A stretch of DNA of 64,000 nucleotides from the NCBI GenBank assembly GCA_030390025.1, contig CM059433.1, positions 108,376,001-108,440,000 on the forward strand, read 5' to 3'. The translations under genes were made by a program, and so were the position numbers. The DNA is from Squalus acanthias. Lineage: Eukaryota. The notes beneath the pieces were generated by a model. The model searched no databases, was not told the origin of the DNA, and saw only the letters and a program-made list of their open reading frames with translations. Positions 35,521 through 64,000 of the stretch are shown piece after piece. Every line of letters starts with the position of its first letter. The first letter of the stretch is position 1.

Positions 35521-35945
35521 AGGTCTCCTACAGCCTATCTCTTTGAATAAATTGAATTATTTTACCAAAGCAAAATACTGCAGATGCTGGAAATGTGAAA
35601 TAAAAACAGAAAATACGGGAAATACTCAACAGGTCAGGCAGCATCTGTGGAGAGAGAAACAGAGATAACATTTCAGGTTGATGACCTTTCATCAGAACTA
35701 GAAAATGTTACAGAATTAACAGGTTTTAAGCAAGTACAGAGGAAGAGGAATGGGAGGAAAGAACAAAATGGTAGGTCTGTGATGGGGTGGAAGGCAGGAG
35801 AGATTAAATGACAAAAGGGACGATGATGCAAGGCAAAAGGGCGTGGTAATGGGGCAAGGAAAGAAACAAAAGATGGGTCTAGAAGAGGTGTAAATGGGAA
35901 TAGCAGAATCATCAACAGCTGCCGTCCAAAAAAAATGGGGGCAGA

Positions 35946-36497
35946 GAACATAAGAATTAGGAGCAGGAGTAGGCCATACGGCCCCTCGAGCCTGCTCCGC
36001 CATTCAGTAAGATCGTGGCTGATCTTCGACTTTCACTCCACTTTCCTGCCCTATTCCCATATCCCTTGATTCCAAAAATCTCTCTATCTCAGCCTTGAAT
36101 ATACTCAACGACTGAGCATCCACAGCTCTTTGGGACAGAGAATTCTAAAGACTCTCAACCCTCTGAGTGAAGAAATTCCACCTCATCTCAGTCTTAAAAG
36201 GCCGACCCCTTATTCTGAAACTATGACCCCTGGTTCTAGACTCTCCAGCCAATCTCTCAGCATCTATCCACCTCAGAATCTTATGTTTCAATGAGATCAC
36301 CTCTCATTCTTTTAAACTCCAGAGAGTATAGGCTCAATCTCTCCTCATAGGACAACCCTCTCATCCCAGAAATCAATCTAGTGAATCTTCGTTGCATCAC
36401 CTCTAAGGCAAGTATATCCTTCCTCAGATAAGGAGAGCAAAACTCTGCACAGTATCCAGGTGTGGTCTCACCAAGACCCTGTACAATTATGATTACA
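35946..36497 (-). mobile_element. CR1 3' fragment inserted in the Penelope 3' region
   Basis: CR1 tail aacataagaattaggagcagg. The flanks gggcagag|ggttat rejoin as in the uninterrupted copy at 37861-37875. Confidence 0.88.
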
Positions 36498-37610
36498 GGT
36501 TATGATCTGAAATTGTTGAACTCAATGTTGAGTCCGGAAGGTTGCAAAGTGACTAATCGAAAGATGAGGTGCTGTTCCTCGAGCTTACGTTGAGCTTCAT
36601 TGGAACAGTGTAGGAGGCCGAGGTCAGAGTGGGAGTGGAGAATTAAAGAGACAGGCGACTGGAAGCTTGGCCATGCTTGTGGACTGAATGGAGGTGTTCC
36701 GCAAAGCAGTCACCCAATCTGTGTTTGGTCTCCCCAATGTAGAGGAGGCCGCATCATGAGCAACGAATGCAGTATACTAAACTGCAAGAAGTACAAGTTT
36801 CACCTGAAAGGGGTGTTTGGGACCCTGAACAGTGGGAAGGGAGGAGGTAAAAGGGCAGGTGTATCTCCTGCGCTTGTACGGGAAGGTGCCGTGGGAAGGG
36901 GATGGGGTGTTGGGGGTGATTTGAGGAGTGGACCAGGGTGTCGCGGAGGGAGTGGTCTCTTCGGAATGCTGAAAGGGAGGGGAAGATGTGTGGTGGTGGG
37001 ATCACGCTGGAGGTGGCGGAAATGGCAGAGGATGATCTGTTGAATGTGGAGGCTGGTGGGGTGGAAGGTGAGGAGAAGGGGAACCCTATCATGGTTCTGG
37101 GAGAGAGGGGAAGGGGTGAGAGCAGAAGTGCGGGAAATGGAACAGACACAGTCGAGGGCCTTGTCAACCACGGTGGAGGGGAATCCTCGGTTGAGGATAA
37201 AGGAAGACACATCTGAAGCACTGGTATGGAAGGTGGCATCATCAGAACAGGTGCGACGGAGACGGAGAAACTGGCAGAATGGAATAGAGTCTTTATAGGA
37301 AGCGGGGTGGGAGGAAGTGTAGTCAAAGTAGCTGTGGACTCAGTGGGCTTATAGTGGATTTTGGTCGATAGCCTATCCCCAGAAATGGAGACAGAGAAGT
37401 CAAGGAAGGGGAGGGACCATGTGAAGGTGAGGGCAGGGTGGAAATTGGAAGCAAAGTTGATGAAATCTTACACTTCAGGACGAGAACAGCAAACGTCACC
37501 GATACAGTCATCGTTGTACCGGAAAAAGAGGCGAGGGAGGGGACCTGAGCCAGACTGGAAGAAAGAATGTTCCACATATCCCATGAAAAGGCAGGCATAG
37601 CTAGGACCCA

Positions 37611-38190
37611 AATAACAACAGAAAACGCTGGAAACACTCAGCAGGCCAGGCAGCATCCGTGGAGAGAGAAACAGAGTTAACGTTTCGGGTCTGGGACCCT
37701 TCATCAGAACTGGAAAAAGCTGGAGATGTAACAGATATTAAGCAGGTGCAGAGACAGGGAGGGGAGGAAGGAATTGAAGGAACATACTGTGCTTAGGTAA
37801 GAGGCAGGAAAGATAACATGTTGCAAATGGGAATGGCAAAATCATACAGCATGAAAAATGGGGGCAGAGGTTATAGTTTGAAATTGTTGAACTCAATGTT
37901 GAGTCCAGAAGGTTGTAAAGTGCCTAATCGAAAGATGAGGTGCTGTTCCTTGAGCTTACGTTGAGCTTCATTGGAACAACGTAAGAGGCCGAGGACAGAG
38001 AGATCAGAGTGGGAGTGAAGCGGAGAATTAAAGTGACAGGCGACCGGAAGCTCAGGGTCACCCTTACGAACTGAACGGAGGTGTTTCGCCCAATCTGCGT
38101 TTGGTCTCCCCAATGTAGAGGAGACCGCATCGTGAGCATTGAATACAGTATACTAAACGGGATTTCCTTTTGTCTCTTCAACTTCTAGGA
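37611..38190 (-). mobile_element. Nested Penelope 3' fragment (GIY-YIG C-terminus plus pLTR) with 14-bp TSD
   Basis: TSD atagctaggaccca at 37597-37610 and 38191-38204. ORF 37871..38113 contains PVACHFNS...EQHLIFRLGTLQPSGLN. Confidence 0.9.
37675..37711 (-). ncRNA. Minimal type I hammerhead ribozyme motif in Penelope pLTR
   Basis: Minus strand reads AGTT-CTGATGA-A-GGGTC-cca-GACCC-GAAA-CGTT-AACT: stem I AGTT/AACT, perfect stem II, palindromic AACGTT stem III, GUU cleavage triplet. Confidence 0.8.
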
Positions 38191-39374
38191 ATAGCTAGGA
38201 CCCATGCAGGTTCCCATAGCAACACCTTATATTTGGAGGAAGTGAGTGGAGTCAAAGGAGAAGTTGTTCAAAGTGAGAACAAGTTCAGCCAGGCGGAGGA
38301 GGGTGATGATGGATGGGGACTGGTTGGGCCTCTGTTCAAGGAAGAAGCGGAGCGCCCTTCGGCCTTCCTGGTAGGGGATAGAGGTGTAGAGGGATTGGAC
38401 GTCCATGGTGAAAAAGAGACGGTTAGGGCCAGGAAACTGGAAACTGTTGAAGTGGCAGAGGGCATTGGAAGAGTCACAGATGTAGGTGGGAAGAGACTGG
38501 ACAAGGGGAGAAAAAATAAAGTCGAGATAGGAAGAAATCAGTTCCATGGGGCAATAACAGGCAGAAATGATGGGTCTACCAGGGCAGTCCTGTTTATGGA
38601 TCTTGGGAAGGAGATAGAAGCCAGCTGTGTGGGTTGGGGTCTATAGGTTGGAGGCCATGGAGGGAAGATCTCCAGAGGAGATGAGGTCAGTGACAGCTTT
38701 GTAAATGATGGCTTGATGTTCGGTAGTGGGGACATGGTCCAGGGGGAGGTAGGAGGAGGTGTCAGAGAGTTGGCGTTCAACTTCCTCAAGGTAGAGTTCG
38801 GTTCGCCAAACAACAACAGCGCCACCCTTGTCAGCAGGTTTAATGACAATGTTGGGGCTGGATCTGAGAGATTTTACCAGTTGGTTTTAATGGACTTCCA
38901 GTTGCCTCCATCAAATTTGTTCCCTTTATAAATTTTCTGCTGAACCTCACTTGTGCTCAGTCATGATACACATATATTTCCTCTGTAGTCTCGTTCAGTA
39001 CCCAAGCCTATGTACCATCTAGCCCAGAGGTATTGTTGGTCTTAACTCACCCAAAATTTATCAAGTTTGCCATTCCTATACTCCGCCCAACGTTCTATCA
39101 TTCCTTTTGTCCTATATGCATTGTATTTCTTTTTAATTTCCCTTTTCATCTATTTTTGGGAATACTTACTTTTCTTGGATATATATTTATCTTGATTCAG
39201 TATTGTTATCCTATTTTCCTCAACTGATACAGTTCATTTCTTTTAATTCTTCCTCATTCCTTTGAAATTTTCCTTTTTAAAGTCATATATCCTGGTGCTG
39301 ATTGCCCAATAATCTTAATCTGATCATATTGTAGTCCCCAGTTATGATGGATGCTAGCCCTATCATTTTTTTTT

Positions 39375-40606: not shown

Positions 40607-41367
40607 GGGCTGGATTTTGAATGACCCGTGGAGTCGGGTTTGGAGGCGTGTGGGGGTTAAATTTGCGGGGTCGGGGTTTCCGACCCCATCCCGACTCCAT
40701 CCCGCCTCCACGCAATTTTGACAGAATCAGTCACGGGGTTCCCGACTCCGTCCCGCCTTCAAGAGGCGGGAGAGGCCATTAAAGCCCTTAACAAGCTCTA
40801 AATTGGCTCTGTAATGCCATTTTGAAACGCTGTAGCTAGTTTAACCCTTTTCCGACGTGAAGCACGCCTGGTGTGAAACACTCCAGTGAAACCTGGCGGG
40901 AGCACAAGTGGATAGCTGACTATCGGCTGCAGGTCCACTATTACAACGGAGATGTGATGAAGGTAGTAGTAGTAATATTAGGTCTGAACGTCGCCTCTGA
41001 TGCTGCTGCATTGAATGTCTTTAGAGACTGCCGGGGAGGACTTGCTTGGCAAAAACATTCATTCTCGCTCTCGCTCTCGCTCTCGCTCTCTCTCCCCCCC
41101 CCCCCCCCCCATTTTGCATCCAGGTCCACTCACATCAAAAGCCAGGCAGGTCCTCTCTCTCAGACTAGGCAGTCAGCAATGATGACATCATCAGAGGCGA
41201 CTTTCAGACTGAAAACACTAATTAGTTCATGGGTTCCCACATGCTCCAACTCAATTGCCCAATTAAGTGAAAATTGCATCATTCATCCACATTAATCTGG
41301 AGTCGGGGGGGAAACACGAAATGCGGATTACACGACCCCAACCCGACCCCAAGACAAAATCCAGCCC
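40607..41367. mobile_element. Harbinger-like MITE (gggctggattttg family)
   Basis: Perfect 13-bp TIR gggctggattttg/caaaatccagccc, TTT TSD, internal (tctcgc)n plus poly-C tract. Confidence 0.88.
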
Positions 41368-41444: not shown

Positions 41445-41800
41445 GGCTCAGTTGATGGCACTCTCACCTCTCACTCAGAACACTGAATTCAATTCCCATA
41501 CAGGACCTAAATGCATACATTAGGCTGATACTCCAGTTCAGTATTGAGGGAGTGCTGCACTGTGGCAGATGAGATGTTGGACCAAAGTCCTAGCTGCCTG
41601 TTCCAGTGGATATGAAAGATTACATGGCATTATTCAATGAAGAGCAGGAAGTTCTCCCAGTGTTTGGGAAACATTCTTCCCTCAATCAACACCTTCAAAA
41701 ATAGATTAACTGGTTATTTAACTTATTTGAGAAGTCGCACAACACCATTTAACTTATTGATTGTGCAGTTCAGTCTGCTGATTTATAAGTAGTTAAAAAT
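41445..41800 (+). mobile_element. SacSINE1-like DeuSINE, degenerate
   Basis: ggctcagttgatggcactctc head and gaagagcagg.agttctcccagtg Deu segment. Confidence 0.7.
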
Positions 41801-53774: not shown

Positions 53775-54240
53775 AACTTTCTGGACTCAACATCGAGTTC
53801 AACAATTTCAGACCATAACCTCTGCCCCTATCATTTATTTATTTATATATATTTTTTCTTTCTCTCTCACATGGCAGCTGTCGATCATTCTGCCATTGCC
53901 ATTTACACTTCATCTAGTCATCTTTTGTTTCTTAACTTGTCCCATTACCATCTCCTTATGCCTTGCACCATCATCCCTTTTGTCTCTTAATCTCTCCTGC
54001 CTTCCATCTCCTGCCTTCCATCCTATCACTGTTCTTTCCTCCCCTCCCCCCTTTCCCTGCCCCATCACTTGCTTAAAAACCTGTTACATCTCCAACTTTT
54101 TCCAGTTCTGACGAAGGGTCATCGTCCTGAAACGTTAACTCTGTTTCTCTCTCTACAGATGCTGCCTGACCTGCTGAGTATTTCCAGCATTTTCTGTTTT
54201 TATTTCAGATTTCCAGCATCCGCAGTATTTTGCTTTTGTG
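53775..54240 (+). mobile_element. Penelope 3' end plus pLTR
   Basis: End of the GIY-YIG ORF (tctggactcaacatcgagttcaacaatttcaga = SGLNIEFNNFR) followed by the pLTR. Confidence 0.88.
54104..54140 (+). ncRNA. Minimal hammerhead ribozyme motif, sense to the CEP162 pre-mRNA
   Basis: AGTT-CTGACGA-AGGGTC-atc-GTCCT-GAAA-CGTT-AACT, with an imperfect stem II. Confidence 0.7.
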
Positions 54241-56862: not shown

Positions 56863-57356
56863 GGGCTGGATTTTCATTGACCCGTGGAGGTGGATTTGGA
56901 GGCGTGTGGGGGGTTAAAATTGTGAAAACTGGCGGGCGGGCACAAGCCCGCCTCCATCCCGCCTCCACGCAATTTTCATTAAATCGTGTCTGCTGGTCCC
57001 GACTCCGTCCCACCTCTTAAAGGCGGGATAGGCTGTTAAGGCCCTTAACAAGCACTAAATTGCCTCTATAATGGCATTTTGAAAGGCTTTTGTGATTTTA
57101 ACCCTTTTTCTACGTGAAGCACGCCTGTTCTGAACCACGAATGTGAAACCTGGCGGGAGCACATTTGGATAGGCCTGGCTGGCTGGCTATGTGGATGGAT
57201 GCATATATGGATGGATGGGGAGGAGACATATCTGGGAGTGGTGGTGTAAAAATATCTGGGAGCAGACTTAGGGCTGCTGCTGCTCATTTTGCATCCAGGT
57301 CCTCTCACAGCAAAGGCCAGGCAGTCTTTGAAGACCTTCAATGCAAAATCCAGCCC
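56863..57356. mobile_element. Harbinger-like MITE, internally deleted copy
   Basis: TIRs gggctggatttt/aaaatccagccc. Lacks ~190 bp present in the 57496-58147 copy. No matching TSD (aaa/ttg). Confidence 0.85.
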
Positions 57357-57495
57357 TTGAAGTTATAAGTGTCAATATTTTTCAGATATTGAATACATGA
57401 AACGCTCAGACACTCTCATGAGAGCTGACAAGACTTATCCACTAATACAAAAGCAAAATACTGCAGATGCTGGAAATCTGAAACTTGGAAGTATA

Positions 57496-58147
57496 GGGCT
57501 GGATTTTGATACTGGGGCGGGCTGGGGTCATGTCATCCACTTTTCGTGTTATCCACCCGACTCCAATTGGATGTGGGAGATTGATGCAATTTTCACCTAA
57601 TTGGGCAATTGAGTTCCAGCATGTGGGAACCCATGAACCAATTAGTGTTTTCAGTCTGAAAGTCGCCTCTGATGATGTCATCATTACTGCTGCATTGAAG
57701 GTCTTCAAAGACTGCCTGGCCTTTGCTGTGAGAGGACCTGGATGCAAAATGAGCAGCAGCAGCCCTAAGTCTGCTCCCGGATATTATTACACCACCACTC
57801 CCAGATATGTCTCCTCCCCATCCATCCATATATGCATCCATCCACATAGCCAGCCAGCCCTATCCAAATGTGCTCCCGCCAGGTTTCACATTCGTGGTTC
57901 AGAACAGGCGTGCTTCACGTAGAAAAAGGGTTAAAATCACAAAAGCCTTTCAAAATGGCATAATAGAGGCAATTTAGTGTTTGTTAAGGCCCTTAACAGC
58001 CTATCCCGCCTCTAAGAGTTGGGACCAGCAGACACGATTTAATGAAAATTGCATGGAGGCGGGCTTGTGCCCACCCGCCAGTTTTCACAATTTTAACCCT
58101 CCACACGCCTCCAAACCCACCTCCACGGGTCAATGAAAATCCAGCCC
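57496..58147. mobile_element. Harbinger-like MITE, complete copy inverted relative to 56863-57356
   Basis: TIRs gggctggatttt/aaaatccagccc with ATA TSD. Confidence 0.88.
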
Positions 58148-60210: not shown

Positions 60211-60374
60211 GTGATAAAGAATTTGAGATGAAAATAATGGAAGAACAGTACAAGCAAGAAATCCATCGTCTCAACAAGAGGTTACAGTGGTATGCTGAAA
60301 ACCAGGAGATGCTGGATAAGGATGCAGCACGGCTTAAAGCAGCAACTGTAGAGATCGAGAAGCTGAAGGAACAG
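60211..60374 (+). CDS. CEP162: CEP162 coding exon ([42 protein letters not shown]...EQ)
   Basis: Acceptor ttttatccag, donor CAG|gtacag, 164 nt. [15 protein letters not shown] is characteristic of CEP162. Confidence 0.95.
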
Positions 60375-63211
60375 GTACAGAAATTACTCTACAGAATAAC
60401 GTGCAACTTTATATATTTGAGATAAATGTTGATGGACTGGAAGTCTAGGCCTATTTGTGCCTTTTCTCCAAACAGTTTGACTTCAGTGTTGAATGGTTAT
60501 TGGTGAATCACTCAGGCATAGAGTCTGTGTTGGTATAGCTCGTACCTTCACAAGTTGCACAGCCACAAGTATGCATGTGAGCACTGAATTATAGTCCCGC
60601 CCCTCGCCATTTTTTTGTAAACTATTATATGTGCTAGTTATTTATGAACAAAAAACAATTTGTTTTAGCTAATTAACAAATGTGCACAATTTGAGCTGAC
60701 TGCAAAGGGTTATTGCTGCTAAAGAATTGTGGATCCACAATTCCTTTAATGCACTCTTATAATGGACATGACAAAGAAGCACCAAAAGAATATAGAAACA
60801 ATTGTATCCCCTTGTGACCTGAACTAATTATCCGTGGCTTTTGCACATGTAGTGCTCTGTTGGGAAATCATTTAAACAATAATCCAATAGCCTGAGCCGT
60901 TAATTGGAAGAAGGCTGAGGTTGGAAAATAGAGCCTAACAAACACAGACACAGTGCAGCTAAGGGACCAGACTGTCTGGAGAGAGGAGACTTGCTGCATA
61001 CACTCTGAGCAAAATGAAGGCTATGAGTCACCCACTGAGTGTCACTCAGTATATGACTGTCCTGGAAATTCCTGGGAGGGTGAGCTGTGCAGGACTGGCC
61101 GAGACCCTAGTTCAGTATACTGACCTTGCTTACGGGATGATCTAGAGATGAGCAAAAAGCATAGACTGCATTTCTCTGCATTCTGAGAAATTGTAGGAAA
61201 TGAATGCATCTGCTCATGTCTTTAACAATGTTTTCCATCTGAGGCTTAAACCTATACAAGAAACCTGGGGTTTGAGTTCACCCAGATTCTTGGAATCAAA
61301 TGTTAGCTGAGGAGATTGTTTTTATTCATTCTCGGGATGTGGGCATCGCTGGCAAGGCCGACATTTATTGCCCGTCCCTAGTTGCCATGAGAAGGTGGTG
61401 GTGGGGCGGGGGCACATTCTTGAAACGCATAATGGTTTGGTACAACTGTGAGTAGCTTGCTAGGCCACTTCAGAGGGCAATTGAGTCAATCATATTGGTG
61501 TAGGACTGGAGTCACATAGACCAGACCGAGTTAGGACAACAGGGTGCCTTCCCTAAAGGGTATTAGTGAACCAGTTGATTTTTACGACAAACCAATAGCT
61601 TCATGGTTACAAACAGGACGGTTTGCACCTGAACCAGAGGGGCACCAATATCCTGGGAGGGAAATTTCCTACGGCTCTTCGTGGGGGTTTAAACTAATTT
61701 GTCAGGGGGATGGGAAAAAGGGCTGTAGTCCAGGAGCCAGTGGTGAGTGTAGGGAGGTACTGAGGAGGGTATCAAGGTCGCAGGAATGTACCGGCAGACA
61801 GGAAGATGGCTTGAAGTGTGTCTACTTCAATGCAAGGAGCATCCGGAATAAGGTGGGAGAACTTGGAGCGTGGATTGGTACTTGGGACTACGATGTGGTG
61901 GCCATTACGGAGACATGGTTAGAACAGGGACAGGAATGGTTGTTGGAAGTTCCGGGGTATAGATGTTTCAGTAAGAAAGGTGGAGGAGTAGCATTGTTAA
62001 TCAAGGATAGTTTAACAGCGGCAGAAAGGCAGTTCGAGGGGGATCTGCCGTCTGAGGTAATATGGGCTGAAGTTAGAAATAGGAAAGGAGCGGTCACGTT
62101 GTTAGGAGTTTTCTACAGGCCCCCAAATAGTAATAGAGATGTGGAGGAAGAAATTGCAAAGCAGATTATGAATAGGTGTGGAGGTCACAGAGTAGTTGTC
62201 ATGGGTGACTTCAACTTTCCAAATATTGATTGGAACCTTTATAGGTCAAACAGTTCGGATGGGATAGTTTTTGCACAGTGTGTGCAGGAGGGTTTCCTGA
62301 CACAATATGTGGATAGGCCGACAAGAGGTGGGGCCACGTTGGATTTGGTACTGGGTAATGAACCGGGCCAAGTGTTTGATTTGTATGTGGGAGAGCACTT
62401 TGGAGATAGTGACCACAATTCGGTAACTTTCACTATTGCAATGGAGAGGGATAGGGCCATACGGCAGGGCAGGGTTTATAATTGGGGGAGGGGTAATTAT
62501 GATGCGATTAGGCAAGAATTAGGGAGTATAAGATGGGAACAGAAACTATCAGGGAAAGGCACAAACGAAAAGTGGAGCTTTTTCATGGAGCAATTACTGC
62601 GTGTCCTTGATAGGTATGTCCCTGTCAGGCAGGGAGGAAATGGCCGAGTGAGAGAACCATGGTTCACAAAAGAGGTTGAATGTCTAGTCAAGAGGAAAAA
62701 GGAAGCGTATGTAAGGATGAGAAAACAAGGTTCAGTTGGGTCGATTGAGGGGTACAAGGTAGCAAGGAATGAGCTAAAAAAAAGAGCTTAGGAGAGCTAG
62801 GAGGGGGCATGAGAAGTCCTTGGCGGGTCGGATCAAGAAAAACCCCAAGGCCTTTTACTCTTATGTGAGAAATAAAAGAATGACCAGGGTGAGGGTAGGG
62901 CTGGTCAAGGACAGTAGTGGGAACTTGTGCATGGAGTCAGAAGAGATAGGAGAGATGATGAATGAATACTTTTCGTCAGTGTTCACCGAGGAGAGGGGCC
63001 ATGTTCTTGAGGATGAGAGTGTGATAAAGGTGGATAGGCTGGAGGTGGTAGATGTTCTGAGGGAAGATGTTTTAGCAATTTTGAAGAACCTAAGGGTCGA
63101 TAAGTCCCCTGGGCCAGATGGGATATATCCTAGGATTCTTTGGGAGGCAAGGGAGGAGATTGCAGAGCCTCTGGCTTTGATCTTTGGGTCCTCACTGTCC
63201 ATGGGAATGGT

Positions 63212-63448
63212 CAAAATTGAGAGGTCGCACAACACCAGGTTATAGTCCAACAGTTTTATTTGAAATCACAAGCTTTCGGAGCTATCGATTGCCCCTTCCT
63301 CAGGTGAAGTAACTTTTACTTCACCTGAGGAAGGGGCAATCGATAGCTCCGAAAGCTTGTGATTTCAAATAAAACTGTTGGACTATAACCTGGTGTTGTG
63401 CGACCTCTCAATTTTGTCCACCCCAGTCCAACACCGGCATCTCCGCAT
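63212..63448. mobile_element. Penelope pLTR-derived palindromic insertion with 12-bp TSD
   Basis: Perfect 101-bp inverted arms 63212-63312 and 63316-63416, 3-nt loop, 32-nt tail, TSD catgggaatggt (63200-63211, 63449-63460). Confidence 0.88.
63321..63362 (+). ncRNA. Minimal hammerhead ribozyme motif (mirrored on the minus strand at 63266-63307)
   Basis: TCAC-CTGAGGA-A-GGGGC-aatcgata-GCTCC-GAAA-GCTT-GTGA: stem I TCAC/GTGA, stem II, palindromic AAGCTT, CUU triplet. Confidence 0.72.
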
Positions 63449-64000
63449 CATGGGAATGGTGCCAGAGGACTGGAGAGTGGCGAATGTTGTTCCTCTCTTC
63501 AAGAAAGGAAATAGGAATGACCCTGGTAATTATAGGCCGGTTAGTCTTACTTCGGTGGTTGGTAAGATAATGGAAAAGGTCCTGAGGGATAGGATTTATG
63601 ACCATTTGGAAAGGGGCAACTTAATCAGGAATAGTCAACACGGATTCGTGAAGGGTAAGTCTTGCCTAACAAATTTGATTGAATTCTTTGAGGAGGTAAC
63701 TAAGTGTGTAGATGAAGGTAGAGCAGTTGATGTCGTATACATGGATTTTAGTAAGGCGTTTGATAAGATTCCCCATGGTCGGCTCATGAAGAAAGTAAGG
63801 AGTTGTGGGATAGAGGGAAATTTGGCCGATTGGATAAGTAACTGGCTATCTCATAGAAGGCAGAGGGTGGTGGTGGATGGAAAATTTTCGGACTGGAGAC
63901 CAGTTACCAGCGGTGTGCCACAGGGGTCGGTGCTGGGTCCTCTGCTGTTTGTGATTTTTATCAATGACTTGGAGGAGGGGACTGAAGGGTGGATCAGTAA

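Follow-up and report, generated by a model that had tools for sequence, protein, structure and literature searches.

A perfect hammerhead-bearing palindrome in a CEP162 intron of Squalus acanthias, probably the stub of a Penelope-like element

The 64,000-nt stretch of Squalus acanthias DNA analysed here (the window) contains a 237-nt insert (63212-63448) with two perfectly complementary 101-nt arms, and this palindrome is a genuine DNA feature. It is very probably the stub of a highly abundant shark Penelope-like element (PLE). The reading that we prefer, with a probability of roughly 0.55, is a single, recent, dead-end insertion of a PLE end, in which the inverted arm was made at integration by priming on both target strands. 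The arrangement of inverted copy, tail and target-site duplication (TSD) is already described for PLEs, and pairs of hammerheads on opposite strands have been known since 2014; a single locus, a truncated retroelement copy in an intron, is of little weight and of modest value as mechanistic evidence. The shark family supplies a very large natural collection of minimal products, among them tail-less copies and seams that vary at a single site, and these copies could separate two-primer integration from fold-back priming; how PLEs form inverted ends and tails is still termed undefined (PMC8557442).

Anatomy and setting of the insert

The original prediction of a perfect palindrome with 101-bp arms and a 12-bp TSD at 63200..63460 proved exact in every feature and position (Table 1). 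The outer end of the left arm corresponds to the tail boundary. The tail is best given as 32-37 nt, overlapping the TSD by microhomology, since family copies as a rule continue to match over the first 3-5 nt of the second TSD copy. The palindrome (63212-63416) is the sole hairpin in the window with arms of at least 12 nt and a loop of at most 10 nt; in a control of ten base-shuffled 20-kb pieces the longest arms were 8-10 nt. A MITE or foldback DNA transposon was rejected, as the right arm stops 32 nt short of the TSD and the tail is single-copy.

Table 1. Positions of the insert, its parts and its surroundings in the window.
Feature	Position	Strand	Remarks
Left TSD copy	63200..63211		12 bp, same letters as 63449-63460; LINE frame restored without insert and one copy
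Left arm	63212..63312	-	Inverted, tail-less copy of element end; 101 nt; 101/101 complementary to 63316-63416
Loop (junction) CTT	63313..63315		3 nt, between head-to-head arms
Right arm	63316..63416	+	Direct copy of element end, pLTR-like fragment; high-copy repeat in contigs of 4/4 runs
PLE-type tail	63417..63448	+	Single-copy; 32 nt, up to 37 nt with TSD overlap; without poly(A)
Right TSD copy	63449..63460		First 3-5 nt also fit family continuation (microhomology)
AATAAA hexamer	63368..63373	+	Putative signal, sense to CEP162, within paired arm
Minimal type I hammerhead motif	63321..63362	+	Compared with features in PMC4209133; cleavage predicted only
Stem I	63321-63324/63359-63362	+	Motif reading
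Core	63325-63331	+	Motif reading; then extra A 63332
Stem II	63333-63337/63346-63350	+	Motif reading
GAAA	63351-63354	+	Motif reading
Palindromic AGCU	63354-63357	+	Motif reading
Predicted cut, CUU triplet	after 63358	+	Motif reading
Minimal hammerhead, mirror of 63321-63362	63266..63307	-	Core starts 63303
Second insertion, same family	41716..41758	-	19-21 nt, tail-less; TSD 12 bp, 41716-41727 and 41747-41758
Host LINE ORF2, AP endonuclease and RT	61600..64000	+	Pfam PF03372, PF00078; start approximate; interrupted by insert
Last CEP162 exon within window	60211..60375	+	94% identity to shark CEP162; aa 869-931 of 1446; upstream of insert

Perfect palindromes are a known class of artefact, and among the contig pieces listed none spans the junctions of the palindrome locus itself; contigs show presence only, and depth over 63280-63303 was zero in runs X5 and X6. 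An assembly or library fold-back artefact is nevertheless very improbable, because the inversion does not reach beyond the element and lies inside the 12-bp TSD, the LINE frame is restored on removal, and loop-crossing contigs are present in two runs from different studies, X1 and X7. Alternatively, DNA repair or template switching during replication could have turned an earlier one-arm insertion into a palindrome, with the left junction, where 3 of 4 letters match the tail start, as repair microhomology. Such a history is barely credible: the whole structure is enclosed by two intact TSD copies, other copies of the family fold back at the same site, and the layout is typical of fresh PLE insertions.

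The insert lies in a LINE that had originally been labelled CR1. When the insert and one TSD copy are removed, a stop-free LINE ORF2 frame of 324 codons runs from 62778 to 63998. Uninterrupted paralogous LINE contigs occur in X5 and X6, and over 169 letters the host LINE has a single difference from an uninterrupted contig of high depth. Twelve shark CEP162 exons (aa 267-931 of 1446) map to the + strand, up to 60386; comparison with shark CEP162 identified the host exon, for which the Atlas gave no identity. Since these exons end upstream of the insert, having reached aa 931 of 1446, and the gene extends past its last exon in the window, the insert is intronic, in line with the proposed CEP162 location. 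Its proposed recent age is likewise upheld by the identity of the arms (101/101) and TSD copies (12/12) and by the near-identity of the host LINE to its uninterrupted relative.

The repeat family and its hammerhead motif

In the run contigs, one arm plus the tail is repeated at very high copy number and is followed by hundreds of unlike 3' flanks. The family contig pieces matched across the four runs number 13410, 8801, 187 and 1723, and at least 215 contigs in X1 and at least 184 in X7 exit at 63451-63453 into unlike flanks. These contigs, with the second copy in the window, indicate a dispersed multi-copy family with variable 5' truncation. The second copy, at 41.7 kb, starts at unit position ~63410-63411; direct repeats such as those flanking it were found around 2 of 20000 random 19-nt intervals. 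Its target is AT-rich, unlike that at 63200-63460. As had been proposed, the family is distinct from the PLE at 35-38 kb, with which only the hammerhead core aligns. A fixed 5' end of the family at 63315 is weakened by a multi-copy X5 contig (depth 177) that runs 28 letters further upstream, and an initiator-like word at 63316-63322 (judged against a consensus), which fits a transcript start at the seam, was discounted because such words occur 13 times per kb.

The search for relatives gave little that could be joined to the family. Pattern scans found the family in 0 viral contigs and 0 prokaryote genomes, and a 25-mer of the arm had 0 matches in metagenomes. The hammerhead pattern had two metagenome matches. 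In one (L002), the near-identical hammerhead follows, on the 3' side, an ORF called GIY-YIG-like from an Atlas score of 0.97 with the family on 23-34% of cluster members; Pfam returned nothing for this ORF, nor for two frames of the 36-37-kb element. In the other (L001), a near-identical hammerhead lies beside an inverted RT piece that scored 25.3 bits with Pfam RT, below the 29.6-bit cut-off. Such neighbours of a near-identical hammerhead speak for the PLE reading, but the two matches are at most distant relatives: both were rejected as members of the family, as they share the hammerhead alone and their downstream similarity was matched by 718 of 2000 shuffles. Searched as a protein, the frame that crosses arm and tail had one candidate match and none at E<=0.01, and no RT or GIY-YIG ORF was linked to the family. 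In the literature, covered largely outside subscription papers, no account was found of this shark family or of a propagating PLE palindrome.

The prediction of a minimal hammerhead on each strand was confirmed at the level of the motif, with cores at 63325 (+) and 63303 (-). The sequence at 63321-63362 has the core CUGANGA...GAAA, an extra base after A9, G10.1-C11.1, the palindromic 15.2-16.2 and an NUH triplet, and variants in the run contigs alter N7, the stem II loop and one stem II pair (G-U to A-U). Rfam gave 0 matches at the gathering score over the window and no hammerhead at E<=10 over 63200-63460, so the ribozyme call rests on the motif. The 19 Rfam matches at E<=10 in the latter interval were rejected, all being below gathering and mostly miRNA models that score any long hairpin. 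A single arm folds no better than shuffled sequence (z 0.10 for 133 nt, -1.14 for the 46-nt motif); folding energy is thus no evidence of a ribozyme.

The suggestion that the hairpin hides the ribozyme agrees with the modelled folds, in which the predicted probability of stem I pairing is ~1e-55 in the full insert vs 0.67 in one arm. The tail is predicted to stay outside the hairpin, with the hammerhead and most of the pLTR buried. A hammerhead of the 63321-63362 type is reported to be inactive as a monomer (PMC4209133), and it is this dimer-only type that the hairpin is expected to hide. As each intronic palindrome is predicted to give 100 bp of perfect dsRNA, the family may contribute heavily to the dsRNA of its shark hosts. 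Dicer or ADAR processing and cruciform formation at the palindrome are plausible.

Origin of the inverted arm

In the preferred two-primer insertion, a PLE protein acting in trans would have made nicks 12 bp apart on the two strands of the LINE. The bottom-strand 3' end would then, by analogy with published in vitro data, have primed reverse transcription at the end of the tail (63448-63453), an outer start site where 3-5 nt match the target; the top-strand 3' end would have primed at an inner start site, the tail boundary at ~63416. The resulting order is TSD, inverted tail-less copy, seam, direct copy, tail, TSD. In the CEP162 pre-mRNA, pairing of the arms is predicted to give a 101-bp hairpin in which the AATAAA and the one dimer-type hammerhead are enclosed; such an insert would lack catalytic activity and could not act as its own template.

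Both outer ends of the insert coincide with the two ends of the tail, and the tail-less 41.7-kb copy, which is flanked by a separate 12-bp TSD, begins at the inner site; both observations support the two-primer route. Other family copies fold back at the same site with loops of 0, 1, 2 and 2 nt, giving at least five seam forms there, and the joints listed include unequal arms (63311>63361, 63309>63370, 63311>63416, 63307>63425 and 63309>63435). These differing loops and arms suggest that the mirror half was likely made anew at insertion. Against the two-primer route, the anole study saw no homology between start site and target (PMC11167929), compared with 3-5 nt here, and the account of a PLE stub as a whole is weakened by the want of an RT or GIY-YIG ORF linked to the family.

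The perfect identity of the arms fits a single copied molecule at least as well as two templates: minority letters at 63405 and 63411, each at ~30% of family depth, are shared by both arms. The first cDNA could have folded onto itself through 1-2 bases close to its 3' end and served as its own template, the hairpin being resolved at the tail boundary. Palindromes at inverted PLE junctions have been explained in print by self-priming of this sort (PMC3846280), and the 0-3-nt seams at one site could represent different snap-back registers in a T/A run. We regard fold-back as a possible but less likely route. By itself it leaves the ending of the inverted arm at the inner start site unexplained. 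In the 41.7-kb copy, which has no tail, priming at that site is directly on target DNA; joints of unequal arms, with few letters or none separating the two sides, are also simpler as two joined cDNAs.

The depth of one junction form stands against the two-primer route and raises the idea that the palindrome itself propagates. A form with a 2-nt loop, 1 nt shorter than that in the window, reaches a depth of 1354.5 in X1, compared with 5-82 for the other listed junction contigs, and two further loop forms reach 196 and 111; contig depth is not copy number. Hairpin RNA would then be transcribed and re-inserted whole by the PLE enzyme in trans, as a protein-free mini-element: part of the family would be 237-nt RNAs with the hammerhead switched off by pairing and the tail free, and the deep X1 form would be an amplified master lineage. 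The position of the tail outside the predicted hairpin suits such a cycle, as does the ability of pLTRs to mobilise sequence in trans (PMC3846280), and the cycle, if true, would amount to a new kind of non-autonomous PLE. Both the mini-element and the proposed master lineage are, however, improbable. The five or more seam forms indicate that independent fold-back events recur at the site; the deep form is not that of the window and is absent among the junctions listed for X7 (~55% read); the predicted hairpin buries the hammerhead and most of the pLTR; and one minimal hammerhead per strand cannot form the dimer (PMC4209133). The original prediction of a self-contained, ribozyme-bearing mobile foldback RNA is consequently not sustained, given a single hammerhead of monomer-inactive type per strand in a published PLE layout, and the loop junctions, with four other loop forms and several unequal-arm joints, speak largely against a fixed palindromic family.

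Comparison with known systems

Non-LTR retrozymes, reported from one chondrichthyan genome (bioRxiv 10.64898/2026.07.22.740005), are tandem arrays in head-to-tail order that carry two or more hammerheads on the same strand. The shark insert is similarly short and non-coding, with a type I hammerhead and a PLE pLTR origin, but it is arranged head-to-head with one hammerhead per strand, and was rejected as a retrozyme for want of head-to-tail units with same-strand hammerheads.

The minimal hammerheads of metazoan PLEs include pairs on opposite strands that are separated by 100-700 bp (Cervera and De la Pena 2014, PMC4209133). The shark motif shares with these hammerheads the 4-bp helix I, the extra nucleotide after A9, G10.1-C11.1, the absence of helix III and the palindromic 15.2-16.2. 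In contrast to the pairs described there, the shark motifs are ~20 nt apart (63307 to 63321 plus stems), with a 5-bp stem II and a CUU triplet; sharks are not named in the accessible part of the paper.

The PAc protein of Anolis carolinensis cuts and extends both strands, and two internal start sites bound the tail (Frangieh et al. 2024, PMC11167929). As in this Poseidon-type PLE, the shark hammerhead lies ~60-95 nt upstream of two tail-bounding ends, poly(A) is absent, and both strands were apparently extended. The shark family differs from the PAc system, as described there, in the absence of a linked protein, the 3-5-nt target homology and a target at 63200-63460 that is not AT-rich; the accessible part of the PAc study reports no inverted products.

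The anatomy of the insert follows the published EN+ PLE layout, which has an adjacent inverted pLTR, an optional 31-bp tail and an 8-10-bp TSD (PMC3846280); PLE insertions also carry an inverted 5'-truncated copy plus a 30-40-bp tail (PMC8557442). In comparison with Pen2a_Av of Adineta vaga (PMC3846280; PMC8557442 Fig. 2), the shark direct part is only ~135 nt, without an ORF or a second direct pLTR, so that the arms abut as a perfect 101-bp hairpin, and the TSD is 12 rather than 8-10 bp. The two share a head-to-head inverted tail-less copy with a palindromic junction, a 30-40-bp tail on one end only, and a single short TSD round the whole. The shark insert thus combines an inverted copy, a 32-37-nt tail without poly(A), a TSD, a pLTR hammerhead motif and a dispersed family, all of them EN+ PLE features; the PLE origin that had been proposed is supported by this published anatomy, by the hallmarks of the minimal hammerhead and by the high copy number of the family.

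Anatomy of the insert and its surroundings

The insert, a palindromic stub of a Penelope-like element (PLE) flanked by a target-site duplication (TSD), is 237 nt long, with two 101-nt arms joined by a 3-nt loop and followed by a single-copy tail of 32 nt; all the features listed for it in the original prediction were found by computation on the window sequence. The insert's outer ends coincide with the two ends of the tail. A search of the whole window for hairpins with arms of at least 12 nt and loops of at most 10 nt returned none besides the insert's own, and in a shuffled control (10 pieces of 20 kb) hairpin arms reached 8-10 nt.

Features of the insert and of a second family copy
Feature	Coordinates	Description
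TSD copies	63200-63211 and 63449-63460	identical 12-mers (sequence match)
Left arm	63212-63312	101 nt; perfectly complementary to 63316-63416
Right arm	63316-63416	101 nt; perfectly complementary to 63212-63312
Second family copy	41716-41758	19-21 nt, tail-less; starts at unit position ~63410; own 12-bp AT-rich TSD

The insert interrupts a LINE ORF2 (labelled CR1 in the original prediction) with AP endonuclease and reverse transcriptase (RT) domains; when it is skipped together with one TSD copy, the LINE frame runs for 324 codons with zero stops. The LINE is uninterrupted across the insertion site in high-depth contigs of two sequencing runs, X5 and X6, with 1 of 169 letters differing; these are paralogous copies and no proof of an empty allele. 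CEP162, proposed earlier as the host gene, was confirmed on the + strand, with 12 exons matched to shark CEP162, one of them at 94% identity. The exons span aa 267-931 of 1446 and the last ends near 60380, which places the insert in an intron.

Elsewhere in the window, a ~1.3-kb element at 56864-58147 resembles a foldback transposon or a MITE-like DNA transposon, its 345-nt centre being enclosed by long inverted arms (169 nt at 99% and 208 nt at 91%); a relative lies at about 40609-41366.

The hammerhead motif

A single hammerhead core is present on each strand of the insert (63325 on +, 63303 on -), and its predicted fold has a 4-bp stem I and a 5-bp stem II. In the motif, A9 is followed by an additional A, helix III is absent, and there are a G10.1-C11.1 pair and a palindromic AGCU. 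In Cervera and De la Pena (PMC4209133), the same features are hallmarks of PLE minimal hammerheads, of which the lone form is inactive and dimers are weakly active; opposite-strand dual hammerheads 100-700 bp apart are also noted there. Among the family contigs, the hammerhead varies at position 7, in the loop length of stem II and in one G-U pair replaced by A-U. The Rfam check of the predicted hammerhead gave zero hammerhead matches for the insert and the folding energy of the motif was no better than that of shuffled sequences, so that the hammerhead is called from its sequence motif. In predicted folds the whole insert forms the long hairpin with a probability near 1 and hammerhead stem I with ~1e-55, while in a single arm alone stem I reaches 0.67.

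The motifs at 37.7 kb and 54.1 kb have only the core in common with the insert, in agreement with the earlier assignment to a separate family. This second, minus-strand Penelope-like family (35564-38890 and 54076-54239) carries another hammerhead variant, with its core at 37707; it is degraded, nested with a LINE fragment, and has two frames without a Pfam match.

A pattern scan of metagenomes found two marine loci, L001 and L002, with a near-identical hammerhead. The L002 hammerhead is located 3' of a GIY-YIG-like ORF (Atlas score 0.97; Pfam without a match); that of L001 is on the strand opposite an RT piece, whose match (E 1.4e-05) is below the Pfam cut-off. Outside the hammerhead, the similarity of both loci to the shark unit (one arm plus the tail) is at chance level; they were rejected as family members on this ground and provide context for the motif. 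L001 1-1050 and L002 1-1470 belong to one PLE-like family, each with an unequal-arm head-to-head junction and with flanks unrelated to those of the shark.

Abundance, seams and formation of the palindrome

For the family survey, contigs from 4 of the 24 available runs were aligned to 63280-63620. Aligned pieces numbered 13410 of 19.5 million records in run X1, 8801 of 51.4 million in X7 (of which about 55% was read), 187 of 3.5 million in X5 and 1723 of 1.5 million in X6. The summed depth in X1, which is not a copy number, was ~6 million on the unit compared with ~0.3 million on the LINE. Among the contigs listed, those diverging into unlike flanks at 63451-63453 numbered 70, 84 and 61 in X1 and 63, 79 and 42 in X7, with an agreement of 0.37-0.39; arm plus tail therefore forms the 3' terminus of a dispersed and very abundant element. 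This end is without poly(A), and the first 3-5 nt of the second TSD copy still match the sequence of the element. Positions 63202 and 63451, in the two TSD copies, are T, and are C in the uninterrupted LINE contigs of X5 and X6; the 3-5-nt match between target and element end may have arisen through CpG decay that preceded the insertion. A multi-copy X5 contig extends upstream of 63315, and the parent element is thus longer in at least one subfamily. A recurrent junction at 63420 (X7, X5; 17 X7 contigs) joins the tail boundary to one other repeated sequence, possibly as a composite repeat or through another element targeting the spot.

Among the contigs listed, those crossing the palindrome centre showed four seam forms besides that of the insert, with loops of 1, 0, 2 and 2 nt (X1 depths of 111, 39, 1354 and 196, respectively). 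The loop-less form is also found in X7 (depth 66), and none of the four forms was among the contigs listed for X5 or X6. In unequal joints, an inverted arm ending at 63307-63311 passes into a direct copy from 63361, 63370, 63416, 63425 or 63435. Joints 63353/63392 (opposite strands) and 63398/63380, 63402/63359 and 63410/63318 (of a kind not printed), also among those listed, point to other inversion points. The varied loops and joints mark the palindrome centre as a hot spot of independent events; however, one form, at depth 1354, greatly exceeds the other X1 junction contigs listed (5-82). It could represent a lineage that has been amplified, or its mean depth could take in arm words.

The differing seams and unequal arms speak against the original prediction of a self-contained palindromic mobile RNA and the deep form in X1 speaks for it; propagation of the palindrome as a whole unit is improbable. 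No piece among those listed spans the junctions of this particular insert; that its palindrome is an artefact is nevertheless very improbable. Minority letters at 63405 and 63411, each at ~30% of the family depth, are common to both arms. Insertion of one arm, followed by later duplication into a palindrome, is the least credible account.

We favour, with a probability of roughly 0.55, a two-primer integration route with an end-joined seam. Priming of the bottom target strand would take place at the tail end and that of the top strand at the inner site; each cDNA would stop near 63315, and end joining of the two would create the seam. What is observed is the anatomy and the diversity of the junctions; every one of these steps is inferred. 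For an anole PLE, Frangieh et al. (PMC11167929) describe a protein that cuts and extends both target strands, reverse transcription that starts at two sites within the RNA, one at each boundary of the tail, and a hammerhead whose cleavage needed the protein and which was dispensable for insertion. The second copy in the window is about the shortest possible product and marks the position of the inner start site, close to 63410 in the unit; flanking like its own occurred in 2 of 20000 random intervals, and its tail-less form suggests that priming on target DNA can occur at the inner site. Self-priming by fold-back, the interpretation given by Arkhipova et al. (PMC3846280), would make the mirror arm and give the same product; it accounts better for arm identity than the two-primer route, and is possible though overall doubtful.

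Joints 63311>63458, 63310>63459, 63418>63458 and 63448>63528 apparently represent further family members in paralogous LINEs, inserted at this site or close to it; they are single low-depth contigs and possibly chimeras. The LINE insertion site and the tail boundary of the element have a short word in common, hinting at a homology-guided insertion hot spot.

Comparison with known systems

The insert is genuine and recent, and its kind is an ordinary one: a PLE insertion of minimal size that has the known inverted end. Five of six features of PLE insertions are seen in it; for the sixth, the link to an ORF, protein search returned no PLE protein for the shark family. Searches confined to the literature found no publication describing this family. 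Its many minimal junctions could allow a test of how the inverted ends of PLEs originate. A MITE identity was rejected on the terminal repeats, and the insert differs from non-LTR retrozymes in the tandem arrangement by which these are recognized (bioRxiv 10.64898/2026.07.22.740005). Pen2a_Av has an inverted pLTR, a 31-bp tail and a TSD (PMC3846280), and this combination of inverted pLTR, tail and TSD is typical of PLEs (Craig et al., PMC8557442); the insert is like them in all three.
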